From positions 9,738 to 40,480 of the forward strand of contig CAZIKS010000006.1 in the NCBI GenBank assembly GCA_964539795.1: a DNA stretch of 30,743 bases, written 5' to 3'. The notes beneath the pieces were generated by a model. That model was not told the DNA's origin. It worked only from the letters and a program-made list of their open reading frames with translations, and made no database searches. Made by a program: the position numbers and the translations under genes. Shown here in pieces: positions 4,562-30,743 of this stretch; the stretch's first letter is position 1; each line of letters starts with the position of its first letter. The DNA is from an uncultured Pirellulales bacterium. Lineage in GTDB: Bacteria; Planctomycetota; Phycisphaerae; Sedimentisphaerales; Anaerobacaceae.

Positions 4562-7102
4562 TTATTCAAAAACCATCAGCCAGTTATTGACAAATACATC
4601 CAGATCCAGCCAATTGATGGAGTTATCAGGAGGAATACTTATATCACAGTCAGGATTATAGCTGGCTTGGCCGTCTTCAGTCAACCAAGCCGCTCCAAAA
4701 GTAGCAAAATCCTCAAAGTCCACATCGCAGTCCGGCTCAATATCGCCGACTATCGGTTCACTCGGTATTTCACCTATGAGCTTCAGGTTCGGCACCGCAG
4801 TGGCAACATACAAACCCGGATTATAGAAATCATCCCAGTACAGAGGGTCGCCGTGCGTACTGTTGCAAAACGCCAACATTACACGCTCGTTGCCCGTGTC
4901 TGAAACCATACAGTACCCGTCCGAACTGTAAAAGCTGTTGTTGTGGCTGAAGTCTATCAACAGATTGCTCGTGCCGTTGTACTCAAACGGCGTCTGGAAG
5001 TGAAAATTCTGCCATCCCGTTGAACTTATTGACTCATTGTTCTGATAGACAACTTTCCATTCGCTCATCTCAACAAACCATGGGCCCGGACCGGAGTAGT
5101 CACTTTTGCTCGTGTGTTTCATTCTGATTGTCCAGTTGTTGAGAGTCTGACCCGGAACTTGGTAAATATCGAGCGCCAAGTCGGTTATAGTTTGCTCGTC
5201 CCCTACATCACTGGACAGATAGATTACCTGCGTTCGGCAATCCTGGTAGTACGTATGTATCGGCCAATATGCGTACGCATTCGTCTGCGGCTCGTACGTG
5301 GTATATATATGATTGTCAACGTCCAATGTGACCGTGGCCGGCGCTGAGTCACCGCCTGTCGGGGATATGCCCCCGTCGTTGGCCTTGAAACAAAAGGTGT
5401 CCTCACCAGCAAAATACGTGCAGGGCCAGTACTCAACGACATTGCCGTTGCCCACGAGCATATAGGGTACACTTATTATCGCACCGGCCCCCGGGTCCGT
5501 CAATCGACCATGTTCGGGCAGCGTAGCTATCTTGTAGCTTAACTGTCCCGGTGGATTCGGTAAACCGTCGTCGGTGGCAATGAGGGTAATCGTCTTGGTT
5601 GTACCTGAAACAGCAGGGACACTCTGGCCGAACGCCGTGGGAGGACCTTCGTTCTGTGAAACGAAATCGATGCCCCATTTATTGCCCGAACTGCTCGAAA
5701 GGTCCGTTGACGTACCAGTGGTAGCAAATTGATTCGAAAAGATATAAGGTGCTTTGTCCGCACTTACCGTAAAGCTCTGCCCTGAAGGCACTTTAACTAT
5801 AGCGTAAATACCCGCCGCATCGCTTGTTCCCTGATAAGTACCTCCTCCGGTTGCTGTCACTACAACATCAGGAATCGGGTTACCCACAAGGTCCGTCACT
5901 CGCCCGCTGATAATCTCCCCCGAACCGCTCGTATACACGTTGTAAACACACTCCTCCAGTATATTGAAAGATGGCGTTGAGTTGACTGTCGGCAGATTGT
6001 ACCATGCATCGTCGTTGCCGCACCAGCCCATATTCACATGATGGTACAGTGTCGAAGAGGTATAGCCGTAACCGTCACAAACAACCGCGTGCCCGCCAAC
6101 CCCTCCCTTGATACCCAGTACCGTCGGTTGTTTGGCATCGAGGTTCGTGTTGACCATGTTTCTCAGCGTTGAGCCCAGGATAGGGTCCTGCGAGTATATT
6201 GAATTGGAATAGCCGAAGATTGCCACTAAATTCGTATCTGCGTAATGCAAATACCCAACAGAACCTCCGGACCCATATATTGTGCCTACGGCCTCGGCCA
6301 CATCATGGCAAAGGCTGCCTATCTCCTGTCTCTGGTATTCCGGCGTGCCTATCAAGGGCTCCAGCGGCATATTCGACCAGGTGTACGAACCTGGATATTC
6401 GTGGTACCGCATAAGTTGAGATGTCGCCGTTGCAACACACCCACAGGGGTAATTTGTGTTGCTGCCATCTGGGCCCGGTGGTGTGTAGTAGTTGTAGCAT
6501 GACTCCATATTGCTGTAACATTCAACATTGCTCTGCCCCCATTTGCTCTGCACAAGCGGAGCTACCCAGACCTCCGACACCGTGGAAAGTCCCAGCGGCT
6601 CAATTACATCTTCTGCCGCCGCCGACAGCTCCTGCCATTTGCTGTTGGCCTTAGCCGCCCGTGCCTGAAGAGCCTCGACGTTCGTCAGTTGTTTCGAAAC
6701 GTTGTCCCTTGCGAGTTCTTTCGCCGTTGCGACCCGGCCGGGAACGTCACTGCTGACCAGCGATCCAAGAGGGTTATCGTCCGAGCTGTCGTAAGTACCA
6801 TCATCAGCAAAACAAATAATCGGCTCAACAAAATCGTCTGCCGGCACAACCACAAAACCGGATGGCTCCAAATAAATAATGTAATAGCTCGGATTGCCCC
6901 TCTCATCGGTAAACGTCTCAATATCGCCAATCTTTCGACCGACAGTTGTACTGAGCGGGTTCACATTGGCTTTGAGCCAGCCTCGTACTGCTCTTCCAGC
7001 CTGCTCTGCTGTCGTTGGCCGGGCCCACAAACTGCCGCAACACAACTGCAAAACTACCAAAAAAACTGTAATCACAGGAATTGTTTTTCCCACTCTTCGC
7101 AT
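4562..7102 (-). CDS. Secreted multidomain cysteine peptidase of family C10 (streptopain/SpeB-like). It has a signal peptide, a C10 propeptide-like region, the catalytic domain, CarbopepD-regulatory-like and Ig-like beta domains, and a C-terminal dockerin-like Ca-binding repeat pair.
   Basis: The N-terminal signal peptide is MRRVGKTIPVITVFLVVLQLCCGSLWA. The SpeB-like catalytic Cys context is CGCVATATSQLMRYHEYP (compare SpeB HCVATATAQIMKYHNYP). The propeptide-like stretch is YYIIYLEPSGFVVVPADDF. The C-terminal DIEPDCDVDFEDFATFGAAWL / DISIPPDNSINWLDLDVFVNNWL pair resembles dockerin repeats. Confidence 0.8.
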   Translation of the reverse strand: MRRVGKTIPVITVFLVVLQLCCGSLWARPTTAEQAGRAVRGWLKANVNPLSTTVGRKIGDIETFTDERGNPSYYIIYLEPSGFVVVPADDFVEPIICFADDGTYDSSDDNPLGSLVSSDVPGRVATAKELARDNVSKQLTNVEALQARAAKANSKWQELSAAAEDVIEPLGLSTVSEVWVAPLVQSKWGQSNVECYSNMESCYNYYTPPGPDGSNTNYPCGCVATATSQLMRYHEYPGSYTWSNMPLEPLIGTPEYQRQEIGSLCHDVAEAVGTIYGSGGSVGYLHYADTNLVAIFGYSNSIYSQDPILGSTLRNMVNTNLDAKQPTVLGIKGGVGGHAVVCDGYGYTSSTLYHHVNMGWCGNDDAWYNLPTVNSTPSFNILEECVYNVYTSGSGEIISGRVTDLVGNPIPDVVVTATGGGTYQGTSDAAGIYAIVKVPSGQSFTVSADKAPYIFSNQFATTGTSTDLSSSSGNKWGIDFVSQNEGPPTAFGQSVPAVSGTTKTITLIATDDGLPNPPGQLSYKIATLPEHGRLTDPGAGAIISVPYMLVGNGNVVEYWPCTYFAGEDTFCFKANDGGISPTGGDSAPATVTLDVDNHIYTTYEPQTNAYAYWPIHTYYQDCRTQVIYLSSDVGDEQTITDLALDIYQVPGQTLNNWTIRMKHTSKSDYSGPGPWFVEMSEWKVVYQNNESISSTGWQNFHFQTPFEYNGTSNLLIDFSHNNSFYSSDGYCMVSDTGNERVMLAFCNSTHGDPLYWDDFYNPGLYVATAVPNLKLIGEIPSEPIVGDIEPDCDVDFEDFATFGAAWLTEDGQASYNPDCDISIPPDNSINWLDLDVFVNNWLMVFE

Positions 7103-7953: not shown

Positions 7954-9240
7954 CTAACCTGCGTCACTTTTGCCAAAGGGAACAGATAAACTCCTTTTTG
8001 CTAGAATATTTTTTTCATAACTTTTAATTTCATCTATCCATTTGGTCCCAATCGGAACGTCGGATTTCATACAATAATAATCCCATACTGCGCCGAACGG
8101 CATCGTCTTTAGTTCTTCCATAAGGGCAAGTCTTGTAGTAAGGTCGCCGGAGATTTCCGCCTCTTTGAGTGTGTCGGCTGGTTCCAACAACGCCATCAAG
8201 AGCCCCTTGAGCAAGCACCTTGTTCCGATGATCCAGGCGGCAATCCTGTTTATACTTGCATCGAAGAAATCCAGGCCGATGCGCACCCTGTCGAGGAAAT
8301 CACCTGTTACCAGTTCTCTTGCGAGCGACTTAAGCTCGTCGTCTAGGATGACAACATGGTCGCTGTCCCAGCGCACGCCCCTGCTGATATGCAGAAGTAT
8401 CCGCTCAAGAAAAACCAGCACGGACGATATCTTATCCGAGACAGCCTCCGTCGGATGGAAATGTCCTGTGTCCAGACAAAGCATCAGCTTATTCTCGACA
8501 GCGTAACCAAGATAGAAATCATAGGAGCCGACAACGTAACTTTCCGTGCCGATGCCGAAAAGTTTCGGTTCCACCGCGTCCAGGTTATATTTTGAATCAA
8601 TTTTTTCGGAAAGTATTTCATCAAGTGATTTTTTCAGTCGTTGTCTCGGGCCCTTGCGGTCGACCGGAATATCCTTGTATCCGTCCGGGACCCAGATATT
8701 TGTTACACATGGGCTTTTAAGTTCTCTGCCTATATACTCGCCGATTTTTCGGCAGGCAATCCCGTGCTCGACCCAGAATTTGCGAATACCCTCGTCGGAG
8801 CTTGCAAGAGTAAAGCCGCTCTCAGCTTTAGAATGGGAGAAGAAGGTTCCATTGAAGTCCAGCTTGAGACCTTTCTCTTTAGCCCAATCTATCCAGGCCG
8901 AAAAATGTTCTGGCTCCAGCTTATTTCGGCAGATGTGTTTGCCGCCGGTTTCGGCATAAATGGCGTGCAGATTCAGGCGGTGTCTGCCGGGTATAAGACT
9001 CAGCGTTTTGTCCAAATCCATTCGCAGTTCTTCAGCGGTCCGCGCCCTTCCCTGATATTTGCCGGTGGCCGTTATATGGTTGCCGCTCACCTCATTTTTA
9101 CTTTCGAACCCCCTTACATCATCACCCTGCCAACAGTGCAGTGATATTGCTATTGTGCTTAGCTGTAGCACAGCCTTATCGGTATCGACCCCAATTTCAG
9201 CATATTGCTCTTTTGCTAAATTATATCTTTGTTCTATCAT
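7954..9240 (-). CDS. rhaA: L-rhamnose isomerase
   Basis: Strong collinear similarity to E. coli RhaA in the motifs [33 protein letters not shown] and [13 protein letters not shown]. The length is 428 aa. The start overlaps the rhaB stop by 4 bp (ATGA). Confidence 0.92.
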
Positions 9241-10778
9241 AGTCTGTCCTGTTCATTAATATTTTGAATTAAATCTAAGAAACTTTTTTTATAATTACCA
9301 ACATCGAGGCCTTCTATCTTGTCGACAAGTTGTTTTTCAATTTCAATATCGATATCGAGCTTATGTGGTTCCCTGCCCTGCAATGCGGCAAGTGCAAGGA
9401 TAGCAGCTCCAAGAGCGGTGGCCTCGTTTATGTTCGTCTTGTATACTTTACTTTGCGGGTAGAATGCCGTTAGCAGCTTGAGATATGGTTGATTTTGCCT
9501 GAAGCCCCCTTCGACAAATATCTGTCCGCCATCTTGATAACCGGCGGCATCCAACGCACATGAGGTCTGAACGGCAAGTGAGCTGAGCAGTGCGGCGATA
9601 GAATGGTCATAATTATCTGCGAAGGAGGGTTTTTTTACCATAGACCGGAACTGCTCAAGTGATATGTGGTTATCGCCGTCTATCAAGGTTGGGCTGGAGA
9701 GGGGAAACAGGCCTGCACCCTGTACAACAGAAGGTAAAATAAAAACATCACACCGGTCAAACAGCAGATTATAAAGCTCATAATCAAAAGCCGGCAGCTC
9801 ACTTCTTTTATGAATGGCTGTAAAGAGCTTCATATAAGTTTCATATTCAAGACCGCCCATGAAGATTGAAGTTTTGACGGGCCTGCCGAAAACATCCTGA
9901 TTATAAAATACATTCCTGCCGAGCTCCTGTGGCTTGAAAGACACGCTATTAGCAGGTTTCATAGCAACGCACCATGTGCCTGTTGAGTTCAGGACAAAGT
10001 TGTCGTTTTCGGTGAGCAAAAACGGTAACAGGCTTGCATTTGAATCATGAACACCAACTGTGACAATGCAATCGGTGGAAAGGCCGCATTGTTCGGCGAT
10101 CTGCGGGCTTATGGTGCCGAGTTTGTCCCAGGAAAAACAAATCTTTTCAGGAAGTTTTTCTATAAGTCCCAGCTTTTGTGCAATATCTGAATATGTATTA
10201 TTTTTATGGTCATAAAGATAAGTGTGGCAGCCGAGCATTGTGGGTTCTGCGGCAACATTGCCCGTAAGCCGGAACCCGAAATATTGCGGATACAAAAGGA
10301 TGTGCTTCGTTTTCTCCATCTCATCAGGAAAGTTTTTCTTCAAATAATAGAGTATCTTGGCGAAGTTTATCATTTCTCCTATTTCAGCGGTTGCCGTTTG
10401 TAGTTGCAGGTCTAATCTGTCGCCGAATTCATCAAAAAATGCATCGCAGAATTGACGCCCTGGTTTATTTGTATATGCAAGCGGCGGACAGGTAATGTCC
10501 CCGTTTGAATCGATGCATACTCCCATCGCTCCGTGAGTAGTTACAGATATCGCTGAAATGGAATAACGGTCTGAAAAAAATTTCAGCCTGTTAAGAAACC
10601 AGTCAAAAACGGCCTGCGGCTGCTCAAGCTTAAGGCCCGCCTGGCCGGTAACTTCTCCGAAGTTCTTTGAGTCCTTCTCAAGAATCTTGAGATCTCTGTC
10701 AAAAACAAGAACCTTTTTATTGGTCTTGCCGATATCCAATATAACAATTGCACGGGTTTTCACCTGATAATGCTCCAC
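9237..10778 (-). CDS. rhaB: Rhamnulokinase (FGGY carbohydrate kinase family)
   Basis: It has the FGGY N-terminal fold ([27 protein letters not shown]) and C-terminal kinase motifs ([28 protein letters not shown]). It sits between rhaA and rhaD, translationally coupled to rhaA. Confidence 0.85.
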
Positions 10779-10784
10779 AACAAA

Positions 10785-11597
10785 TCAAAGGCCGGTTTCT
10801 GTTTCAAGAATAGATTTGTCGTAATCAAGGTTAAAACGTTCAGCAAGAGCCAAAAGCTGCCCGTCGCTTATGACGGAATTTATGCCGCCGGCGGCTTTGG
10901 CTTTGAGGTATATCTCCGCGGCTTTTTCGGCGACATGGATTCTGCCCATCGCCTCGTCAGGGTCTTTGCCGGTTGCAAAGATGCCGTGGTGCTGCCAGAC
11001 TGCCATATCTCTTTTTTGACAGGCCCTTGCCGTTTCAATGCCAATCTCCATACTTCCCGGCACAAGCCAGGGGATAAATTCTATGCCTTTTGGGAAAACA
11101 ACCATGCTTTCAGTTTGCATCTGCCACAGGAGTTTGCTCAGTTTTTCGGTGGTAAGCTCTTCGACGAGAGTCAGCGTGATAAGATTCGTTGCGTGATTAT
11201 GTATTACAACGCGTCTGCCGGTCTCCTTAATGGACGAATGGCTGCCCAGGTGAGCGAATAACTCGGAGGTCGGGCTAGCGCCTTTTGTAAAGCCGCCGAC
11301 AATAGTGTATGCAGAACCTTTGTCGTTAAGCTTGATAAAACCGAGATTTTCAAGCGGTGCAAGTTCGATGTTTCTGAGAAATTTACCTGTGCCAGAAATA
11401 AGGAATACGTCGTTTTCAAGGTCAGGGTATTCTGTCGGCAAATCTATCCAGTCGCCTTTTGCCTTTTCTGTAAGCGAGGCCTTTTCTTCGTCATCGAGTC
11501 TTACGCTTATGTTACCCCCGTTTGCTTCTATCCAGCCTTTGTCCCACATGTCACGGCTGACACGAGCAACTGTCGTTATTAAATCTTCACAGTTCAT
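10785..11597 (-). CDS. rhaD: Rhamnulose-1-phosphate aldolase (class II aldolase)
   Basis: Near-collinear with E. coli RhaD in WDKGWIEANGGNISVRLDD, ISGTGKFLRN, PTSELFAHLGSH, VIHNHATNLITLT and a 270-aa length. It lies 6 bp upstream of rhaB. Confidence 0.9.
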   Translation of the reverse strand: MNCEDLITTVARVSRDMWDKGWIEANGGNISVRLDDEEKASLTEKAKGDWIDLPTEYPDLENDVFLISGTGKFLRNIELAPLENLGFIKLNDKGSAYTIVGGFTKGASPTSELFAHLGSHSSIKETGRRVVIHNHATNLITLTLVEELTTEKLSKLLWQMQTESMVVFPKGIEFIPWLVPGSMEIGIETARACQKRDMAVWQHHGIFATGKDPDEAMGRIHVAEKAAEIYLKAKAAGGINSVISDGQLLALAERFNLDYDKSILETETGL

Positions 11598-21643: not shown

Positions 21644-23104
21644 TTATTCTTTTTTGTTAGAAGCATTTCCCGTTTTTGCCGGCTTATCAGAGGATTTACT
21701 TCGCTCTGAAACTGTAACAGCAGCTTTATCATCCGGCATGTCACTAATTTCCTGTAGTCTCTTTGCTAAGTCGATTCCGGTAGCAGCTTTCATCTGTTCC
21801 AGAAACTTTACAAGAGCTCCAGGGGCGGCGGTCATAAGTCGGTTTACTGCACTGTCACCATCCCCGCCTCCACTGTCGATAGCAACAACATTGTCAAACT
21901 TAACCTGGCCGATAGATTTGGCTCCTGCATCAGCAACTGTTTTGATAGCCTCTAAAGCGAGATTAAGTTGTGCTGCTTTTCCATAGGCATTCCAGGCTTC
22001 AGCTTTCTTCCGCAAGCCTTCAGCCTCAGCTTCGAGTTGTAATTGAGTGCCTTTGGCTCTTGCTTCGGCTACTTTCAAAATAGCCTGACTTTCACCTTCG
22101 GCTTTAAGAATAGCCGATTGTTTCTCTGCATCAGCAGGCACAACAACTTCCGCCCGGTACTTTTGCTCTTCAGCCTCTGCTTTGGCTGCCTCAACTTTTT
22201 CTCTTGCTCTTTGTTGCTCTTCAAGGACTTTCTGTTCCTGAATAACAACCTCCTGTCTTGCTTTTGCTTCGGCAAGAGGACCTTGTTGTTCGGCTTTCTT
22301 GGTAGCAGCAAGAGTTTCACCATGGTACTGCTGTCTTGCAACATCACGATTTTTTTCCGCTTCTGCGATCTGTTTCTCCTGTTCAGCCCTGACGACTTCG
22401 CCCTCTCTTCTGGCAGTTTCTGATTCCTGCATTGCATCTCTGTCGGCTTCTGCCTGCCCAATTGCCGCATCCCTTTTAACTTCGGCGGTTCTCTTTATTC
22501 CAAGAGCTTCAAGATATCCTCTTTCGTCACGAATATCCTGAATGTTGATGATGTCAATTATCACACCAATTTTGGCTAATTCCTCACCGGCCTGCTCAAG
22601 AACTTTGTTTACAAACATATCTCGCTTTTGGTAAAGCTCCTCAACAGTCAAAACACCGATAATATCACGCAGTTGCCCTTCCAGTGTTTCTTTAATAATC
22701 TGTTGAATTTGTCTGTCGTCTGTTCCAAGAAACCTTTCTACTGCTCTGGCAATCATTCCTTCCTCACCGGATATCTTCACATTTGCAACAGCATCAATAG
22801 TTACAGGAACACCTTCTTTTGAATATGCCTTTTCTACTCTTACATCAGCAAGATTCATTGTCTTAAGGGAAATTCGATTGACTTTTTCCAAAACAGGAAT
22901 TTTGAATTTGGCCCCGCCGACAATAGCTCTCCATCCCCTGACAATAACAGTTCCATCTTTGGTTTTTACCTTGTTTTTTCTTCCTGTGAAAATCAACGCC
23001 TCGTTTGGTTCTGCTTTCAACCAGTTATTTGCGAGAATCAGCACAATCGAAATTCCCGAAACAACCAGAACGGCAATAACAATTATCAAACCTAAACTCT
23101 CCAT
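21644..23104 (-). CDS. Flotillin-like SPFH/band-7 protein (YqiK/FloA-type). It has an N-terminal TM anchor, an SPFH domain, and a long Ala/Glu/Lys/Gln-rich coiled-coil region.
   Basis: The N-terminal TM is LGLIIVIAVLVVSGISIVLILA. The SPFH core and the EA-rich flotillin repeats (AEAEKNRDVARQQ..., EAAKAEAEEQKYRAE...) are present. Confidence 0.9.
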   Translation of the reverse strand: MESLGLIIVIAVLVVSGISIVLILANNWLKAEPNEALIFTGRKNKVKTKDGTVIVRGWRAIVGGAKFKIPVLEKVNRISLKTMNLADVRVEKAYSKEGVPVTIDAVANVKISGEEGMIARAVERFLGTDDRQIQQIIKETLEGQLRDIIGVLTVEELYQKRDMFVNKVLEQAGEELAKIGVIIDIINIQDIRDERGYLEALGIKRTAEVKRDAAIGQAEADRDAMQESETARREGEVVRAEQEKQIAEAEKNRDVARQQYHGETLAATKKAEQQGPLAEAKARQEVVIQEQKVLEEQQRAREKVEAAKAEAEEQKYRAEVVVPADAEKQSAILKAEGESQAILKVAEARAKGTQLQLEAEAEGLRKKAEAWNAYGKAAQLNLALEAIKTVADAGAKSIGQVKFDNVVAIDSGGGDGDSAVNRLMTAAPGALVKFLEQMKAATGIDLAKRLQEISDMPDDKAAVTVSERSKSSDKPAKTGNASNKKE

Positions 23105-23165
23105 AATAATTCTCCTTTACTTAAAATTATATTAGTGTTTTTATTGCTAGCTTACAAAATGACTT

Positions 23166-23726
23166 CTACTCCACAACTGCCGTTTTTCCCGCAACCGACT
23201 TTATTTTGACAAACTCTCCTCTTTTGTATTCTCTCTCGGGATCAGCCGCTCTTGCATTGAAGTAAGTACTTTGACCTGTTTGTTCGTTGGTTGCTTCTAT
23301 TTCGCCGGTACCTCCGTCTTTTGGTATTGGAACAACCACTCTGCCCTGTTTCCCGACAAATGAGGCCAGCCTAATCTGGCTTGTTGATTGTTGTTTGTAC
23401 AGAAGCTTAAGCAGATTATAACCGAGAAACCAGGCTGTTCCTCCACCGACCAGACCACAAATAACATGATGGAGGGGCCACTTAAAATAAAAAGACAAAT
23501 ATCCGCCTGCGCCAAAACCAACCAGGAAAAATAATATCAGTTTTAAACTTAATATACCGGGCTCTCCGAAATCGCCTGCACCTGCGTCTACATCCAAATC
23601 CGCATCAATATCCATATCGACATCTGCGTCAACATCTGTATCTGCGCCGAACACCGCCATTAATACCAGAAGCAGGCCGGGTATAATGGCCAGCAGACCA
23701 TAAATTAATAATACACTCATAATCAA
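23166..23726 (-). CDS. NfeD-like (YqiJ-type) membrane protein with a C-terminal OB-fold. It is the partner of the adjacent flotillin.
   Basis: It has two TM segments, an acidic D-rich loop (DTDVDADVDMDIDADLDVDAG), and a C-terminal beta-rich domain (GKQGRVVVPIPKDGGTGEIEA...GEFVKIKSVAGKTAVV). It is positioned immediately upstream of the flotillin gene, as in yqiJK operons. Confidence 0.75.
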   Translation of the reverse strand: MIMSVLLIYGLLAIIPGLLLVLMAVFGADTDVDADVDMDIDADLDVDAGAGDFGEPGILSLKLILFFLVGFGAGGYLSFYFKWPLHHVICGLVGGGTAWFLGYNLLKLLYKQQSTSQIRLASFVGKQGRVVVPIPKDGGTGEIEATNEQTGQSTYFNARAADPEREYKRGEFVKIKSVAGKTAVVE

Positions 23727-23767
23727 TCTCCTTTCTGAGTATTGCCTGTTTTTCTAAATCGAAATTT

Positions 23768-23808
23768 CAAATCGCAACGCCTGCAAAAAACACGAACTCC
23801 GAATCCAC
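23768..23808 (+). repeat. Isolated copy of the repeat core motif, lying between ybjQ and the nfeD-like gene inside the cluster
   Basis: aaatcgcaacgcctgcaaaaaacacgaactccgaatcc aligns to the core aatcgcaaaaatgacgaacgttttgaacttccgattgc. Confidence 0.45.
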
Positions 23809-23809
23809 G

Positions 23810-24124
23810 TTACTCCACTACGACCGCTGTGCCGTAGGCTAAAATTTCCGATGCGCTCTGCATAACCATTGATGTGGCAAATTTCATACCCACAACCGCA
23901 TTTGCACCGAGCTTTTGTGCCTCTTCTATCATTCGGTCGATTGCCTGTTCCCGGGATTCGGCCATCATCTTCGTATAATCGCTTATCTCTCCTCCAACCA
24001 GGTTTCTAAGGCCCGCCATAATGTCTCTTCCGATATGCCTGGCACGAATCGTATTACCTCGAACAAGCCCCAGATGCTTTATAATTTTTCTCCCCTCGAT
24101 ATCTCCAGTCGTCGATAGCAGCAT
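23810..24124 (-). CDS. ybjQ: YbjQ/UPF0145 family protein (putative heavy-metal-binding domain)
   Basis: Collinear with E. coli YbjQ in MLLSTTGDIEGRKII..., RNLVGGE and LGANAVVGMKF...YGTAVV. It starts 4 nt after the anti-sigma stop. Confidence 0.85.
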   Translation of the reverse strand: MLLSTTGDIEGRKIIKHLGLVRGNTIRARHIGRDIMAGLRNLVGGEISDYTKMMAESREQAIDRMIEEAQKLGANAVVGMKFATSMVMQSASEILAYGTAVVVE

Positions 24125-24128
24125 TTTT

Positions 24129-24575
24129 TTATCTCCTTACATCTTTGTAACGGTCTTTTTTCCAGAAATAAAGTCTTTCCCGCAATACTGACACAAACAA
24201 AATTGCCAATCCCGCTATCAACGCCAAGAGGCCAGCTTTTAATATAATATCGACGGTCGGGTCTTTGATGAGATCTTCTATCGCCTTGAAGCCGCCGTAT
24301 ATCAACAGCAGGATAGCGGATATTGAAAACAAAATCCACCCCACGCCTCGCTCGATACGGTTATACACACCTGACCAGTACAGCCTCCATATCCGATCTT
24401 CGGGCTCAACGAACTTTACTTCGTCAGTGATTCGATTCAGACGCTTAAACTCTTCCAATTCCCCCCTGCATACAGGACAGGATGCCAAATGTTCTTCAAA
24501 AACCTTTTTTTGCTCACAGTCAAGCTCATCGTCCAGATAAGCCATCATCAAATCTACATAATCGGGGCAAGTCAT
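24129..24575 (-). CDS. Membrane-anchored anti-sigma factor with a zf-HC2 motif
   Basis: The N-terminus carries H-x3-C-x2-C (HLASCPVCRGE). A single TM helix (ILFSISAILLLIYGGF...LLALIAGLAILFVSVL) follows. It lies directly downstream of an ECF sigma gene. Confidence 0.8.
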   Translation of the reverse strand: MTCPDYVDLMMAYLDDELDCEQKKVFEEHLASCPVCRGELEEFKRLNRITDEVKFVEPEDRIWRLYWSGVYNRIERGVGWILFSISAILLLIYGGFKAIEDLIKDPTVDIILKAGLLALIAGLAILFVSVLRERLYFWKKDRYKDVRR

Positions 24576-24592
24576 TGCTGCCTACCTCCTTT

Positions 24593-25153
24593 TTATTTGT
24601 CTAAAAGCTCTTTTAGTTTTTTACGTGCATTATATAACCTGCTCATCACAGTGCCTCTCGTGCATAAAAGAATCTGAGCAATCTCTTCGTAAGAAAGGTT
24701 CTGAAAGTGTCGCAATACTATCATCTCGCGATGTTTTTCATTGAGCTGGTCAATCGCTTTCCAAACACGTTCCTCTACCTCATTTCTTTCTGCAACTGCA
24801 TGTGGGTCAAAACAGCTGCCGGCACTGCTCGCAACTTGGACATCGTCAACTTCTTCTAAGTTCTGTTGATGACGCCCGCTCCGCTTTCTCAAGTGACTAA
24901 AACACAGGTTTTTCAGAATCTGATAGAACCAGGGAAAGAATTTTCGTTTTGGATTAAGCTGATTTATCTTGGAATATGCCCTGAAAAAGGCCTCTTGAGA
25001 CAGGTCCAGTGCATCTTCATGATTACCCACAAGCCCGAGCGCAATAAAATATGCCTGTTTCATATATTTTCTGACAATAGCTTCAAATGCTTTTGCAGAC
25101 CCCCTCCGACATTGCTGTATTGCTATAGATTCTTCTTCACAAAAGCAGTTCAA
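24593..25153 (-). CDS. ECF sigma factor (RpoE-like, sigma-70 regions 2 and 4)
   Basis: Region 2 reads DLSQEAFFRAYSKINQLNPKRKFFPWFYQILKNLCFSHLRKR. Region 4 reads REMIVLRHFQNLSYEEIAQILLCTRGTVMSRLYNARKKLKELL. Confidence 0.9.
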   Translation of the reverse strand: MNCFCEEESIAIQQCRRGSAKAFEAIVRKYMKQAYFIALGLVGNHEDALDLSQEAFFRAYSKINQLNPKRKFFPWFYQILKNLCFSHLRKRSGRHQQNLEEVDDVQVASSAGSCFDPHAVAERNEVEERVWKAIDQLNEKHREMIVLRHFQNLSYEEIAQILLCTRGTVMSRLYNARKKLKELLDK

Positions 25154-25793: not shown

Positions 25794-25826
25794 AAAACAA
25801 AAAAAGCCCGCCATAAAGCGGGCTTT
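25794..25826 (-). terminator. Rho-independent terminator for the DUF4139 gene at 25864..27216. The stem is GCCCGC/GCGGGC with loop CATAAA, followed in minus sense by U7.
   Basis: The plus strand reads aaaaaaaGCCCGCcataaaGCGGGCttt. Read on the minus strand it is a hairpin followed by TTTTTTTGTTTTT, about 40 nt after the stop. Confidence 0.7.
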
Positions 25827-25863: not shown

Positions 25864-27216
25864 CTAATTTCTTCGGGAAGACGTTACCCAGTCTTCCGTT
25901 CTGGTGCCGTGGTATGTCGTTAGCGTATACTCAAACTTTCTAATTGAATTAGGCTCAACCATCAGGGTGAATTTAATCGTATCCAGGTCAACTTTTTCAA
26001 ACTGGCCAAAATCGCCGTTTTTCTCAAGATTCCAATACTGAGTACCAAAGTTTCGCTGAATTTCAACCTTTACAGGAAGCTCACGCGTATTTCTCACCTC
26101 GATACTGAATTTTCGAATCTCATCCCAGCCTGCTATATTCTTTTTATTATTGAATCTGTAGTTTTCCGTCTTGAAGTCCAGAAGCTTGGGTTCAACAACT
26201 ATATCAGCTACCGGGCCAAGGCTTAGCTCTACATCTTCATCTACGGGAATATACTTGAAGCTTGACTGGCCGACATAACCGAGGTGCTGCTCGTTATCGA
26301 CGCCCCTGTAAACTTTTAATATGCCTCCGGGAATGGGTGTATCGCCGAGCTTATGCTCTTCGTCGTTTTTGAAACTTAGAAATCTGATAACGCTCGGCCC
26401 ATATCTTTTTTCTTCATATTTATACAGATTTACTACAGGGACCTCCTCGACATCAAAGCTAATCAGCCGTTTCGACCATCCGTTCGGAATCGTTTCTGTC
26501 CCTTCTATCGTATAAAGGAAATACTCACTCAGACCCTCCTTTTTGATTTCTTTGGGGGCCATATCTGCTTTGTCCATAGCCTTCATCATCTCTTCTCGTA
26601 CCTTAACACCCCTCTTGATAGGTGCTCCAACGAATATTGGCGCTGCTACACCGGGCCTGCCGTATGGGTATTGCCTTCTTGCTAAATCTGCGATTCTGTC
26701 AAGGATATGGACCTTACCGACAATCAGTCTTGTCTGGGCATTTTCATAGTCTTCTCCGCTGTTGTTGGTAACTCTGACATAACCCTGCAGACGCATTGAC
26801 TTTTCATCTTCGGTTAAAGTACCCATGTAAAACGCTCGCCAGGAAAGCCCGCTTGTCAGATACGTAATCTCTACCGGTACTTTACCGCCAAAGCTGCTTT
26901 CAATATTCCACAGGCCCAAGTTTGTCACCCTCGCCGGATAAGTTAATTCCGCGATGTCGATTCTATCTGCGTTTGTTTTGGGCAGCATCTCCAGACTCGT
27001 TGGGTCGATAAGTGTATTCGCCCAGGAAAACTGTAGTTTGTTTTGTCCTTCTTTTAAGGTCAGTGCCCTGCTTTCCCGGGCCAATGTCATGTCTGCAGAG
27101 TTGTAAATAGTAAGCTGAACCGTGTCACGGCTGGGCAGCGTTACTAAATCTATCTTGGCCAAACCGGGCTTGCTTGCCGTGAAAATTATAAGTAAAGCAA
27201 ATATTATGCGTTTCAT
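25864..27216 (-). CDS. Secreted DUF4140/DUF4139 (MuiA-like) family protein, paralog 1
   Basis: A signal peptide is present. The protein is about 60% identical over the periplasmic domain to the C-terminal part of the fused anti-sigma at 28403..30280, for example LVTLPSRDTVQLTIYNSADMTLARESRALTLKEGQNKLQFSWANTLIDPTSL against VTLPRRDNVQITIYNSADLTLVREKRNLTLKKGWNWLQFMWANTLIDPTSL. The C-terminus is YTLTTYHGTRTE. Confidence 0.8.
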   Translation of the reverse strand: MKRIIFALLIIFTASKPGLAKIDLVTLPSRDTVQLTIYNSADMTLARESRALTLKEGQNKLQFSWANTLIDPTSLEMLPKTNADRIDIAELTYPARVTNLGLWNIESSFGGKVPVEITYLTSGLSWRAFYMGTLTEDEKSMRLQGYVRVTNNSGEDYENAQTRLIVGKVHILDRIADLARRQYPYGRPGVAAPIFVGAPIKRGVKVREEMMKAMDKADMAPKEIKKEGLSEYFLYTIEGTETIPNGWSKRLISFDVEEVPVVNLYKYEEKRYGPSVIRFLSFKNDEEHKLGDTPIPGGILKVYRGVDNEQHLGYVGQSSFKYIPVDEDVELSLGPVADIVVEPKLLDFKTENYRFNNKKNIAGWDEIRKFSIEVRNTRELPVKVEIQRNFGTQYWNLEKNGDFGQFEKVDLDTIKFTLMVEPNSIRKFEYTLTTYHGTRTEDWVTSSRRN

Positions 27217-27245
27217 TTTGGTTCTCCTTTGATTAGAGATTTTGA

Positions 27246-28406
27246 TTAGTATCTATAAATATCGATTTCCTTTCCCGGGCGAACATTTCGCCGATGGTAT
27301 CGCATCTTCAGTTCCTTCTTGCCGTGTGCCGGAAGTTTGATTTCAAATTTGAGCGTCTCGGCATCCTTGCGTTCATATTTAATATTACACTTTTTCATGT
27401 CCCACTGGCCTGGTATGTGTTGAATCATCGTGAGAACGGCGGGTTTGTCTTTGAAGTTTTCTAACTTTGCGACGATTTCCTCATCGGTATCGAAAAGAAT
27501 CACCTGGCCTCTGTTGTTTCTTCTTAAGTTGATTTGTTCATCTCTCATTTTCCGCTGGGTAACTACGATGTCCCTGCTGTCACCGATATAGAGTTCGGCC
27601 TTTTCACCGACGGGAATCTGTCCTGTTACATCTTCCCCTAAGAATATAGTACCTTCGTACCCGTCACCCTGGAACAGTCGGGCCTTGCCGCCCCATAGAG
27701 AAAATTCCCCTAAGCCGCTCTTCTTGTTGTTTGTGATTTCATAGCTCACAGGAATACCCACGTTCTGGTTTTCTAATTTCTCAGGGTCCCACGGCAGCTT
27801 CCCCGCATCGAATGTCCAGACCTTGCGAATAGGGACTTTATCGGCTTTTAGAAACAGCATCTGTTTGGTCTCCTCGTGGTCGATTCCCTGCTCGAAGGCC
27901 TCGCCGTAGTCCAAAAGTACCCGTGCCAGGTCAAAATCCTCTCCTGAAAAATTTCTTAGTACCAGGTAACTTTTCAAATCAACTGCAGTTTCGCCCTTGT
28001 CTGCGATGGCTTTATATGTTATCAGCCTGTCGATATTCCGGAGCAGATAACTGATACGGACCGTCTCGGCGTAGTCACTGTCACTGCTGATTTCCCACAC
28101 TAACGCAGCTTCATTGGGAGGATAGCTGACATTCAAAAGTGTCACCTTGTCGGGATGGTCGAGCACCGTCAGACGAATAGAGTCTGCATCGATACTGACG
28201 CCTTTCCATGAAAAATCCACCTTATTAAGGCCTTTCTGCAGCGTCAGCACGCGTTCTTCTTCAATCAGCGTAGCATACGGATTGTCCAGCCGAATCACTG
28301 TCGCTGCCCGCTCAGGCAGAGCTACAAGCTTAATCCTGCCATCTGCAATCCCGCTGCAAACAAACAACAGCAAAATCGCAATTAGTTTTCCTCTTTCAAT
28401 CTTCAT
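27246..28406 (-). CDS. Secreted DUF4139-like protein, a divergent paralog 2
   Basis: A signal peptide is present. The architecture matches in diverged form (LVALPERAATVIRLDNPYATLIEEERVLTLQKGLNKVDFSW; LRNFSGEDFDLARVLL against VTNNSGEDYENAQTRL). It has an ATGA overlap with the upstream gene and a 30-bp gap before the downstream one. Confidence 0.7.
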   Translation of the reverse strand: MKIERGKLIAILLLFVCSGIADGRIKLVALPERAATVIRLDNPYATLIEEERVLTLQKGLNKVDFSWKGVSIDADSIRLTVLDHPDKVTLLNVSYPPNEAALVWEISSDSDYAETVRISYLLRNIDRLITYKAIADKGETAVDLKSYLVLRNFSGEDFDLARVLLDYGEAFEQGIDHEETKQMLFLKADKVPIRKVWTFDAGKLPWDPEKLENQNVGIPVSYEITNNKKSGLGEFSLWGGKARLFQGDGYEGTIFLGEDVTGQIPVGEKAELYIGDSRDIVVTQRKMRDEQINLRRNNRGQVILFDTDEEIVAKLENFKDKPAVLTMIQHIPGQWDMKKCNIKYERKDAETLKFEIKLPAHGKKELKMRYHRRNVRPGKEIDIYRY

Positions 28407-30280
28407 GATTTGGTCTCCTTTGAATGTTGTTTTGTAAATATTTCTTCTCTGGTCCCATGATATGTTCTCACGCTATATTCAAAAGTCTTCTTACTTCGAG
28501 GTTCTATCTCAAGCGTAAAACGAGCGTGGGTGGCATCGTGTTTTTCGTAAGAAACATTCTGGCCCTCATACTCTAAATTCCAATACGCGGTATTAAAACC
28601 TCGGGTGATTTCAAATTTCACTGCAAGCTCGCGGGTATTGGTAACTTCCATTTTCCATCTGCGTAATTCATCCCAGCCGGTGATATTTTCATTAACATCG
28701 AAGACGAAGTTTTCCGTCCCAAAATCCGTCAAAACCGGTTCGACTCCGACCAGCCGGGCAGCGCCGAGATTTAGCTCAACCTCTTCATCGACCGGGATAT
28801 ATTTAATATTCGTTCCGCCTTTGTAAGATAGATGTCCTTTGTCATCCGCCAGTCCATAAATCTTCACATCTCCATCTGGAATCGGTGTATCGCCGAGATT
28901 GTGCTCCTCGTCATTGATGAAACTTAGAAATCTTATTGTCTGCTTACCCCAGCGCTGCTCATCATATTTGTATAAACTTTTGACTTCGATATCATCCACA
29001 TCAAACGAAAGCAACCGTTTGCCCCACTTATCAGGTATGCTTTCAGTGCCCTCAATGGTATAAAGGAAATACTCGCTAAGACCTTCTTTCATTATTTCCT
29101 TAGGCTTATATTTCTCAACAGGTATCCCTAATTTCCCGCTTTCATTCGAAAGTACATCCCCTAAGAAGAATTGTGATTTGGCCTCAGATTTCGAACGTCG
29201 GAGTGCATCTGGTCTGTTGTAGGGGTATTGACGTTTAGCCAATTCCGCTATTTCGTCAAGCTGGTGGACTTTGCCCACTATCAGCCGCGTCTGGGCATTC
29301 TCATAGTCCTCGCCGCTATTATTCGCTACACGGACATAGCCCTGCAGTTTCATTTTTTGCTCATCTGTTGAAAGTGTCCCCATATAAAACGCCCGCCAGC
29401 TAAGACCGCTTGTAAAATAAGTAACTTCAAAAGGCGCCTGCCCTTCGGCCTCTGAGCGAATAAGCCATCTGCCGATATCCTTGAGCCTCGCGGGAAATAC
29501 CAACTGCTGAATATCAATTTTATCTCCATCTTGCAGCGGTTCCAGGCTAAGCGAAGTTGGGTCTATCAGCGTATTCGCCCACATAAACTGAAGCCAGTTC
29601 CACCCCTTTTTCAGCGTCAGGTTCCGCTTCTCCCGTACTAAAGTCAGGTCCGCAGAATTATATATCGTAATCTGCACATTATCCCGCCGCGGCAATGTAA
29701 CCAGTTCGATAGCGCTGGCTGGAGCAAAAGGCGCTTTCTCCGGCACTTCTGCCCCGGTAATCATATCATCTGCGATACCTCTCATCCCTGTCCCGGCTTT
29801 CGGTTTCCCCGCTGCTCTTGCAGCTGCCACCTTCGTCTCAGCCGTAGCTCTTCTGTCAAAATCCATTCTTAAAGTTGCCTTAGACGAATCTTCATGCTCA
29901 AGTTCTTCTGCCGCTGGTCTTAGGCCTTTCGCAATTTGACGGCTTTGTTTTTCGTCTCTTCCAATGTCAGATACCAGCAGCGTCAATCCCATCAGCAAAA
30001 CCGCAGCCGCCGCACCCATCCATGCAGGCTTCCTGAACGCAAATATCGTCGATTTAGTGCCCCTCTTCGCTTGCTCTATAGTGTCGGAAATCAACTTATC
30101 GGAAACTTCTGCCTCTCCACGCAACAAATCCAGCGAAGCGAATTTACGTTTTAGCTGTTCAGCTCGCTGACGACAGTCGGCACAGCCTTTGAGGTGGCTG
30201 AAGATTTCCCCCGCCCGCCTCTCAGAGCCCAGCTCGAACTGATATTCTATAAGTTCTTTTTCTGTCAAGTGACGCTTCAT
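28403..30280 (-). CDS. Anti-sigma factor (zf-HC2 plus TM) fused to a periplasmic DUF4140/DUF4139 (MuiA-like) domain
   Basis: The N-terminus has H-x3-C-x2-C (HLKGCADCRQRAE). A TM helix follows (AWMGAAAAVLLMGLTLLVSDI), then a roughly 430-aa domain highly similar to the ORF at 25864..27216. Its start overlaps the ECF sigma stop by 4 bp (ATGA). Confidence 0.8.
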   Translation of the reverse strand: MKRHLTEKELIEYQFELGSERRAGEIFSHLKGCADCRQRAEQLKRKFASLDLLRGEAEVSDKLISDTIEQAKRGTKSTIFAFRKPAWMGAAAAVLLMGLTLLVSDIGRDEKQSRQIAKGLRPAAEELEHEDSSKATLRMDFDRRATAETKVAAARAAGKPKAGTGMRGIADDMITGAEVPEKAPFAPASAIELVTLPRRDNVQITIYNSADLTLVREKRNLTLKKGWNWLQFMWANTLIDPTSLSLEPLQDGDKIDIQQLVFPARLKDIGRWLIRSEAEGQAPFEVTYFTSGLSWRAFYMGTLSTDEQKMKLQGYVRVANNSGEDYENAQTRLIVGKVHQLDEIAELAKRQYPYNRPDALRRSKSEAKSQFFLGDVLSNESGKLGIPVEKYKPKEIMKEGLSEYFLYTIEGTESIPDKWGKRLLSFDVDDIEVKSLYKYDEQRWGKQTIRFLSFINDEEHNLGDTPIPDGDVKIYGLADDKGHLSYKGGTNIKYIPVDEEVELNLGAARLVGVEPVLTDFGTENFVFDVNENITGWDELRRWKMEVTNTRELAVKFEITRGFNTAYWNLEYEGQNVSYEKHDATHARFTLEIEPRSKKTFEYSVRTYHGTREEIFTKQHSKETKS

Positions 30281-30743
30281 TTCGTTTCTCCGCCGAATTC
30301 AGGCAGTTTCTGCGCCAGTGTCCTCAGTGCCCGATACATTTGCGTTTTTACCGTACCAACAGAACAACCCAGGACAGCCGCCACTTCCGGATAGCTCATC
30401 TGCCGATAGTAAGCCAGAACAAGTGTAGCTCGTTGTCTGGTCGGCAAAAAACCAATTGCCTGTCGTACCTGCTCTGTTCGCTCGGCTTTTAATGCTTCAT
30501 CTAAAGGATTACACGAATTATCTAAAATAGCGACAGCTCCCGGCTCCTCGCAGTCTCTATTGATACAATCGGTTTTTTCCTCTAACGACATTACTTTCAA
30601 CCGCCTGTTTTTGCGCAATCCACTTATTGCAATATTTGTTGCGATTGTTAACAGCCAGGCTTTAAGTCGCGTACCACGAAATGTATGGGCCTTCTCGTGC
30701 ACACGCTTAAAGGTTTCCTGAAAGAAATCCTCAGCCTGTTCTC
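30277..30743 (-). CDS. ECF sigma factor, partial. The N-terminus lies beyond the window edge.
   Basis: The frame stays open to the window end (..EQAEDFFQETFKRVHEKAHTFRGTRLKAWLLTIATNIAISGLRKNRR), which is ECF region 2. Region 4 reads TRQRATLVLAYYRQMSYPEVAAVLGCSVGTVKTQMYRALRTL. Confidence 0.85.
   Translation of the reverse strand, partial: EQAEDFFQETFKRVHEKAHTFRGTRLKAWLLTIATNIAISGLRKNRRLKVMSLEEKTDCINRDCEEPGAVAILDNSCNPLDEALKAERTEQVRQAIGFLPTRQRATLVLAYYRQMSYPEVAAVLGCSVGTVKTQMYRALRTLAQKLPEFGGETK

Follow-up and report, generated by a model that had tools for sequence, protein, structure and literature searches.

Extracytoplasmic function (ECF) sigma factors, together with their anti-sigma factors, are major signalling devices of bacteria, and the periplasmic input is usually the part that is missing. 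Among described systems, the closest in components to the one reported here is that of Pseudomonas aeruginosa, where the ECF pair SbrI/SbrR responds to envelope stress and drives muiA (review PMC10418997); the main known target of this pair is a secreted protein of the DUF4139 superfamily, and SbrI has been assigned to group ECF35 (supplement of 10.1101/2019.12.11.873521). Closest in logic are RsgI/SigI, RsiV, RseA/RseB and CpxP. In RsgI/SigI of Clostridium thermocellum, a membrane anti-sigma factor carries sensor modules from families of sigma-controlled secreted proteins, the operon is autoregulated and the signal is transferred by proteolysis (PMC10328401, PMC6852018, PMC4711584). In RsiV/SigV of Bacillus subtilis, the anti-sigma factor doubles as a receptor: when an extracellular molecule binds to it, a cleavage site is exposed (PMC4183432). 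In RseA/RseB (MucA/MucB) and CpxP/CpxA, a periplasmic protein of the regulon binds the sensor, damps signalling and is titrated away under stress. Here we describe an operon in a 30,743-nucleotide stretch of DNA (the window) from an uncultured Pirellulales bacterium (assembly GCA_964539795.1, contig CAZIKS010000006.1, positions 9,738 to 40,480), in which an ECF sigma gene is followed by the gene of an anti-sigma factor fused to a periplasmic DUF4139 domain, and then by two secreted paralogs of that domain, P2 and P1.

The periplasmic domain of the anti-sigma factor is a recognisable copy of P1. Residues 189-613 of the fusion align with residues 20-441 of P1 at 58% identity over 435 aligned positions (E = 0), close to the figure of about 60% given by the sequence-only reading that preceded this analysis; the homology, starting at residues 189 and 20, therefore begins at the expected mature N-terminus of P1. 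Both proteins pass the Pfam model of DUF4139 (PF13598; cut-off 31.8 bits), the anti-sigma factor with 38.3 bits and P1 with 47.5. P2 is more distantly paralogous: over its full length it shares 24% of its residues with P1 (BLASTP E 5e-28), and its identity to the fusion is 28% (E 3e-15). It gave no Pfam match at E up to 0.01, and its membership of the family rests on BLASTP and on a homologue (P0212, 79% identical) that carries a precomputed PF13598 match. The label 'DUF4139/MuiA-like', given to these proteins at the outset, holds in its first half and has to be loosened in its second: against the MuiA-family model TIGR02231 (524 positions, cut-off 112.6 bits) the fusion scores 26.9 bits, P1 scores 47.7 and P2 gives no match. 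By these scores the fusion and P1 are relatives of the MuiA family and not members of it. Judged by eye, the signal peptide of P1 spans about residues 1-20, ending between KPGLA and KIDLV, and that of P2 about residues 1-21, ending between CSGIA and DG. The cysteine in the latter raised the question of a lipoprotein, which was rejected by eye, LFVC being unlike a lipobox. One motif, N-x-S-G-E-D, is invariant in all three paralog groups (fusion, P1 and P2) and is the best candidate for a functional site.

The fusion is found well beyond the window. An identical 625-aa product is encoded on three independent metagenome contigs, and 120 homologues, 59-100% identical to it, span 98-100% of the sequence. 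When 1.84 billion cluster representatives were searched exhaustively with the fusion, 3,099 related clusters at 50% identity were obtained; among the top 150, about 25 have the layout of a zinc-type anti-sigma (ZAS) domain, a transmembrane (TM) helix and a DUF4139 domain, and the rest are secreted proteins of roughly 440-470 aa. The junction of the fusion carries the motif PFAPAS, in full (E/D)x(P/A)PFAPAS(A)IELV, at the place where a signal peptide would be; it is present in 118 of the 120 homologues and in 9 more distant fusion representatives. P1 and P2 are without PFAPAS, and a signal peptide occupies that position. The sequence-only reading had itself considered that a sequencing or assembly frameshift might have joined two genes, one for a small anti-sigma factor and one for a secreted DUF4139 protein. 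Given the three contigs, the 120 full-length homologues with synteny in about 80 genomes, the approximately 25 clusters with a common layout and the invariant junction, an artefact of this kind is so improbable that we regard it as ruled out.

Taken singly, the N-terminus of the window protein matches Pfam zf-HC2 below threshold (15.6 bits, E 0.018; cut-off 22.2) and the NCBIfam model 'antisigma' weakly (25 bits). The family settles its identity. The motif HxxxCxxC lies near residue 29 in all 120 full-length homologues. When 26 diverse N-termini are aligned, no column is invariant except those of His4, His29, Cys33 and Cys36, which are candidate zinc ligands. Compared with solved anti-sigma factors, the profile of these 26 N-termini finds ChrR (E 0.0037), DdvA (0.0039), RslA/3hug_B (0.0086) and RsiW (0.1), and the four residues align with the corresponding His and Cys of ChrR. 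Alignment by hhalign with the window's own zf-HC2 anti-sigma factor gives a probability of 91.6% (E 8e-7), and 21 of the 26 N-termini match zf-HC2 individually, the best at E 7e-7. On this family-level evidence the N-terminus is a ChrR-type zinc anti-sigma domain, in agreement with the zf-HC2 motif and TM helix that had been read from the window. Hydropathy places a segment within residues 77-137 (mostly about 80-115) in all but one of the ZAS-bearing fusion-type representatives of at least 500 aa. The spacing is loose, with between 117 and 241 residues separating the ZAS motif from the junction motif in the 120 homologues, and the linker stretch shows no consensus in the fusion-family alignments. 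The PFAPAS junction may be a site of regulated cleavage or docking. Its sequence APASA followed by I also resembles the Ala-x-Ala site of signal peptidase; cleavage by signal peptidase at PFAPAS is doubtful because the motif lies about 85 residues from the TM helix.

Gene order around the fusion was surveyed at the 80 best loci in GTDB species representatives, the denominators being the loci testable for each feature. All 80 are in metagenome-assembled genomes (MAGs) of Planctomycetota, labelled Phycisphaerae, Sedimentisphaerales or 'uncultured Pirellulales'. Of 75 loci, 73 have the sigma gene immediately upstream of the fusion, 66 of them under a strict distance criterion and 7 more in which longest-ORF start calls had created a spurious overlap; in 48 loci the two genes overlap by 4 nt. 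Downstream of the fusion, 62 of 67 loci have P2 and 56 of 57 have a P1-like gene, which is present in one to three copies and often in two or three. Because the flanking genes differ between loci, the four genes can be said to travel as a unit; the order sigma-fusion-P2-P1, first read in the window, recurs in about 80 Phycisphaerae/Sedimentisphaerales MAG loci. The components are not equally conserved. The top 120 homologues of P2 are 79-91% identical to it, homologues of P1 are 74-100% identical, and mean pairwise identity is 85% for P2, 80% for P1 and 67% for the fusion. Over 44 complete loci, the mean pairwise p-distance rises from P2 (0.19) through P1 (0.25), the sensor domain (0.30) and sigma (0.37) to the anti-sigma domain (0.50). 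P2 is thus the most constrained component, as expected of a shared partner, and the periplasmic domains are more constrained than sigma.

The origin of the sensor can be sought among distant relatives. We collected 80 metagenome loci with proteins about 30% identical to one another and to P1, and sorted these proteins with hidden Markov models from the P1, P2 and fusion groups into a type 1, mostly of about 430-500 aa, and a type 2, mostly of about 380-430 aa. Both types occur in tandem in 68 of the 80 loci, in the order '21' in 38, '211' in 14, '12' in 11 and other orders in the rest. An ECF sigma gene lies upstream in only 2 of 52 testable loci, and both of these carry a fusion of about 595 aa. 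No conserved neighbours of the distant pairs were found, the best gene cluster being common to 7 of the 80 loci. Judged by this distribution, the two-paralog secreted pair is the ancestral unit. Since a P2-like and P1-like pair is widespread and normally without sigma, the sensor is probably a recruited P1 copy, a P1-type domain having been put behind an anti-sigma domain and TM helix in a Sedimentisphaerales-type lineage. In that lineage, identity between fusion and P1 is 51-64%, compared with at least 71% within P1; because the two groups are cleanly separated, the duplication that gave rise to sensor and P1 must be old and has not been homogenised. The earlier idea that the secreted proteins are soluble copies of the sensor therefore stands as regards kinship, sensor and P1 being 58% identical, but probably not as regards origin, P2/P1 being an older stand-alone cassette in 68 of the 80 distant loci. 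Strict pairing of P2 with P1 would be expected if the two proteins work jointly, a heteromer being the simplest case.

The promoter and the gene junctions connect this cassette to the sigma factor. Pfam finds only Sigma70_r2 and Sigma70_r4_2 in the sigma factor, which scores 88.3 bits against the NCBIfam model TIGR02937 sigma70-ECF (cut-off 42.9). Its full reading frame, taken from a metagenome contig identical to the window (L001:5263-5871), has 202 aa; the true start is likely Met7, giving about 196 aa, as a GGAG follows the promoter dyad and a second in-frame ATG is present. With two sigma domains only, a length of about 200 aa, an adjacent downstream anti-sigma gene and an upstream ECF-type promoter, it has the features of an ECF sigma factor. 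The promoter dyad, TGTCAACC-N16-CGTCT, is exact in 60 of 74 loci and present as a close variant (CGTTT or a one-base spacing change) in the other 14, at a fixed position about 37 nt upstream of the sigma start; shuffled sequences give at most 4 loci per dyad. A stricter pattern matches upstream of sigma in 58 loci and nowhere else across 927 kb of loci. A looser scan of the window and L001 yields no second target; it picks up no more than two isolated matches, both in the window, which are weak and have a poor -10. In the ECF classification, promoters of the type TGTCAACC-Xn-CGTT are predicted for ECF37 and ECF41 (10.1101/2019.12.11.873521).

All genes of the operon lie on the minus strand and are transcribed in the order ECF sigma, anti-sigma fusion, P2, P1 and terminator (Table 1). 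As the sequence-only reading had it, sigma is translationally coupled to an anti-sigma factor with a DUF4139 domain, the stop of the former overlapping the start of the latter in ATGA; a second ATGA joins anti-sigma and P2, with a Shine-Dalgarno sequence AAGGAGA upstream of P2, and the two secreted paralogs follow. The span assigned to them at that stage, 28403-30743, covers sigma and anti-sigma, but the paralogs fall outside it, at 25864..28406. P2 and P1 are separated by 29 nt, and P1 has its own AGGAGA. The terminator is strong and GC-rich: its stem of 10 bp includes 6 GC pairs and encloses a 4-nt loop, and the T-run TTTTTGTTTTT comes next. Some 650 nt of non-coding DNA separate it from an unrelated second sigma/anti-sigma pair. 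Because the sole ECF-type promoter precedes sigma and the terminator comes after P1, P2 and P1 would be the output of their own sigma factor. We infer that sigma and anti-sigma are co-transcribed and that the operon is autoregulated, with P2 and P1 made from the promoter of sigma.

Table 1. Positions of the operon and its parts in the window
Feature	Position (nt)	Strand	Basis or remark
ECF sigma factor gene	30277..30743	minus	154 codons in the window, 5' end beyond the window end
Anti-sigma/DUF4139 fusion, 625 aa	28403..30280	minus	Open reading frame and homologues
Zinc-type (ZAS) class-I anti-sigma domain, cytoplasmic, residues 1-78	30047..30280	minus	
HxxxCxxC motif of the anti-sigma domain	30173..30196	minus	
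Single TM helix, residues 86-104, WMGAAAAVLLMGLTLLVSD	29969..30025	minus	Basic FRKP stretch just before; read from sequence
Periplasmic linker, residues 105-182, variable, charged, low-complexity	29735..29968	minus	
Junction motif PFAPAS, residues 184-189	29714..29731	minus	
Periplasmic P1-type DUF4139 sensor domain, residues 189-615	28436..29716	minus	Pfam PF13598, identity to P1
P2, secreted type-2 DUF4139-like paralog, 386 aa	27246..28406	minus	BLASTP against P1 and fusion
P1, secreted type-1 DUF4139 protein, 450 aa	25864..27216	minus	Pfam PF13598
Intrinsic terminator closing the operon	25803..25826	minus	

Structure prediction gives some idea of what the sensor may be. A first AlphaFold model from 40 close relatives was unusable (predicted local distance difference test, pLDDT, 53), and a model of the sensor domain from 142 sequences of the three paralog groups reached a pLDDT of 73.5 and a predicted template modelling score (pTM) of 0.63. 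Apart from a C-terminal helix the model is all-beta and contains several beta-sandwiches, and it revealed no catalytic signature. Such a fold suggests a binding module that is made of several beta-sandwiches and is not catalytic. In the pairwise alignment, P2 and P1 diverge most in the region of an insert at domain residues 149-220. Sequence searches of the PDB with the family profile and with P2 returned nothing significant for the DUF4139 part. By Foldseek, the best solved matches of the sensor are oligosaccharyltransferase chains, apparently subunit 1 (Ost1/ribophorin I), over the whole length at E 1.6e-5 to 5.8e-4 with low TM-scores of 0.17-0.2; the next are N-domains of M1 aminopeptidases and LTA4H. 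The resemblance is weak, and a remote relationship in fold between the DUF4139 domain and Ost1/ribophorin I is at most possible.

The most likely function of the operon is a feedback loop: through the tethered P1 mimic the cell would monitor P2/P1 or a ligand shared with them. Our preference among its versions, which we hold tentatively, is titration of a partner, either P2 or a P2/P1 complex. At rest, sigma would be held at the membrane by the anti-sigma factor, the tethered P1-like domain of which would have retained the binding specificity of P1; P2 or a P2/P1 complex would occupy and stabilise this domain, as RseB does RseA. If free P2/P1 were lost, or drawn off by an envelope or extracellular ligand, the tethered domain would be left unoccupied, and the anti-sigma factor would then be cut, possibly at or near PFAPAS, and undergo regulated intramembrane proteolysis. 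The released sigma factor would transcribe its own operon and refill the P2/P1 pool, and free P1, competing with the tethered copy, would shut the system off. Overall, the operon would act as a homeostat of a secreted binding system, with mimicry of a subunit as its principle. That the free copies compete with the tethered domain for a ligand or partner, which the sequence-only reading had suggested as one possibility, is plausible. We prefer partner titration because the pairing of P2 with P1 is ancient, P2 is the most constrained component and the coupling of fusion and P2 is tight. A more specific form, in which the P1 and P2 types make an obligate periplasmic heteromer that the anti-sigma factor monitors through a tethered subunit mimic, with free P1 as competitor and PFAPAS as cleavage site, is unlikely to be correct in all its parts.

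Several observations weigh against partner titration. Of 67 testable loci, 5 showed no P2 downstream of the fusion, and three of these (L022, L046 and L055) extend at least 3 kb in that direction; L054 is likewise without P2, with only about 1.6 kb of sequence there. Fusion and P2 are not always neighbours: in 17 of the 62 loci with P2 they are separated by one or two unrelated genes for secreted proteins. Mirror-tree analysis of sigma, the anti-sigma domain, the sensor, P2 and P1 gave positive correlations throughout, both raw and partial, and no pair stood out, so that the distance matrices do not single out the pair of sensor and P2. The sensor model is only moderate, with low-confidence or disordered stretches at domain residues 149-220 and 281-303, and neither a site-1 protease nor an RseP homologue was identified near the operon. 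The contact of the sensor with P2, P1 or a ligand is itself a proposal. Finally, the zinc motif could mean, by analogy with RsrA and ChrR, that the input is cytoplasmic and redox-based instead of periplasmic.

This last point amounts to an alternative of its own, in which the ZAS domain is a zinc/thiol redox or singlet-oxygen switch of the RsrA/ChrR kind and the DUF4139 domain merely a membrane-anchored third member of the P2/P1 group that serves localisation. Some ZAS proteins are indeed redox switches, the invariant H4, H29, C33 and C36 have a ChrR-like spacing, and in some relatives an AhpC/TSA thioredoxin-like secreted protein is inserted in the operon. Yet many membrane ZAS anti-sigma factors use zinc structurally only, a divergent fusion cluster without the zinc motif (P0383) keeps the architecture, and the invariant junction motif and conserved periplasmic domain fit signalling, which leaves such a switch quite improbable. 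A somewhat doubtful but weightier alternative does not require the paralogs to touch: as in RsgI, BlaR1 or RsiV, a ligand bound to the tethered domain would trigger cleavage and sigma release, and the induced P2/P1 would bind, neutralise or process the same ligand, so that negative feedback would come from ligand depletion. The 58% identity of the sensor to P1, together with a conservation as strong as that of P1, makes a shared ligand site likely. Also in favour of co-sensing are the presence of P2/P1 in the autoregulated operon and the precedents of RsgI with sensors of the carbohydrate-binding module or PA14 type (PMC10328401, PMC6852018) and of lysozyme recognition by RsiV (PMC4183432). 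Such co-sensing nevertheless leaves the ancient, strict pairing of P2 with P1 and the top conservation of P2 unexplained, and the varying flanking genes indicate no particular substrate. Both features are accommodated by partner titration, which is why we retain it.

Because the sensor is a recognisable copy of one of two sigma-induced proteins, the input of this system is narrowed to whatever P1 binds, be it P2 or a shared ligand. The DUF4139 family thereby becomes open to study, with sigma activity as a read-out of the state of P2/P1. The link between an ECF sigma factor and DUF4139, so far reported only for Pseudomonas (SbrI to MuiA), is extended to another phylum and in fused form. The hosts are uncultured Sedimentisphaerales-type planctomycetes of sediments and bioreactors, for which clues to envelope and surface biology are scarce and useful. 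If a P2/P1 heteromer monitored through subunit mimicry were to prove true, it would give the first experimental handle on the very large DUF4139 family, which in Pfam has members from bacteria to eukaryotes, and the fold of the family may have a remote kinship with that of Ost1/ribophorin I, an oligosaccharyltransferase subunit.

The operon varies among relatives. Genes inserted between fusion and P2 include a serpin (436 bits), a CarboxypepD_reg-repeat protein, a 535-aa AhpC/TSA thioredoxin-like protein, an uncharacterised 435-aa protein and a DUF2330 protein (examples at L076:7498-8772, L036:7920-9365, L069:5308-6915, L018:7907-9229 and L066:9167-10129), and they may hint at the substrate of the module, for instance proteases or redox. 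A protein of 221-225 aa without family match stands between sigma and fusion at L004:9320-9997 and L017:202-867. One MAG, DATKZT01 (Sedimentisphaerales SMAG_U14252), has two complete fusion-P2-P1 modules on different contigs (L028 and L030). Six loci (L022, L045, L047, L054, L055 and L059) encode extra free-standing proteins of about 465 aa that are nearer to the sensor (62-65% identity) than to P1 and form a further class of soluble paralogs. On the chromosome of Phycisphaerales bin71 (CP070675.1, L070:2587-7449), a 1,620-aa reading frame combines two FAD_oxidored regions, an F5/8 type C domain and a DUF4139 domain; P2 and two P1 copies follow and no sigma lies upstream. Either the N-terminal fusion here is of another kind, or ORF calling has produced an artefact.

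Further genes of interest surround the operon. Upstream of the sigma promoter and beyond the window end, L001:3230-4924 (plus strand) encodes a fourth secreted DUF4139-like protein of 564 aa, which scores 26.5 bits with Pfam (below cut-off) and 18.6 bits with TIGR02231 and is absent from the relatives L004-L006; beyond it, divergently transcribed, is a third sigma gene (184 aa), accompanied by genes for a TM protein of 146 aa and a secreted protein of 325 aa. Within the window, positions 1306-3186 (plus) encode a 626-aa protein with ECF sigma domains at residues ~30-178 and a hydrophobic segment at ~225-250, followed by about 370 C-terminal residues without Pfam match, a long and probably membrane-spanning extension. 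The second ECF sigma factor (186 aa) and its zf-HC2 anti-sigma factor (148 aa), at 21644-25153 (minus), are directly upstream of a YbjQ-family gene, an NfeD-like membrane protein gene and a flotillin/SPFH gene, all on one strand with short gaps, and may control a membrane-microdomain set. Positions 4562-7102 (minus) encode a secreted C10 (streptopain-like) peptidase that carries both a Spi inhibitor pro-domain and a CarboxypepD_reg domain; nearby, positions 7954-11597 (minus) encode a rhamnose catabolism set of RhaA, FGGY kinase and class II aldolase.

As regards novelty, no published description of a sigma-DUF4139 anti-sigma architecture was found; the DUF4139 literature that we found is not about sigma factors, and PF13598 appears there in unrelated contexts only. 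DUF4139 and PF13598 are likewise absent from the group-by-group supplement (1.3 million characters) of the ECF classification (bioRxiv 10.1101/2019.12.11.873521). Database names of the homologues are only 'DUF4139 domain-containing protein' or 'hypothetical protein', and because the anti-sigma domain is below the Pfam threshold, the fusion would be invisible in domain-architecture tables. The novelty claimed for this locus from its sequence has to be divided: the fusion is undescribed as far as we found, but a regulatory link between an ECF sigma factor and MuiA is already published for P. aeruginosa (PMC10418997), so the link is not new and the fusion is.

Compared in detail, SbrI/SbrR differs in that muiA is unlinked to sbrIR and unfused and that no P2/P1 pair has been described. 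MuiA belongs to the TIGR02231 subfamily, the cut-off of which the planctomycete proteins miss. To our knowledge, SbrR is without a DUF4139 domain. RsgI/SigI comes near in logic only: Pfam RsgI_N gave no match on the fusion, SigI is not an ECF sigma factor, the cytoplasmic domain of RsgI is RsgI_N, its ligands are known carbohydrates, its host is Gram-positive, and the system is without a tethered copy of an obligate two-paralog cassette. RseB and CpxP, in contrast to P1, are not paralogs of the sensor domain that they bind, and RseA is non-zinc; binding in the planctomycete operon would be the corresponding, inferred step. The cleavage site of RsiV adjoins the membrane, whereas PFAPAS is about 85 residues from the TM helix, and the sensor folds are unrelated. 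For the anti-sigma domain, the best solved match is ChrR of the ChrR/SigE pair of Rhodobacter sphaeroides (PDB 2q1z, 2z2s), with which the pattern His-x24-His-x3-Cys-x2-Cys aligns; ChrR, however, is soluble and has a cupin C-terminal domain, without TM helix or DUF4139. BlaR1/MecR1 are alike in that the sensor domain is paralogous to a resistance or effector protein induced by the pathway, but they are not sigma/anti-sigma systems, their sensor is acylated by a known ligand, and a zinc protease domain signals. An autoregulated ECF system with feedback is a familiar design principle, and the parts of this one (an ECF sigma factor, a class-I zinc anti-sigma domain and presumed regulated proteolysis) are familiar as well; its design is a new variant of familiar regulation.

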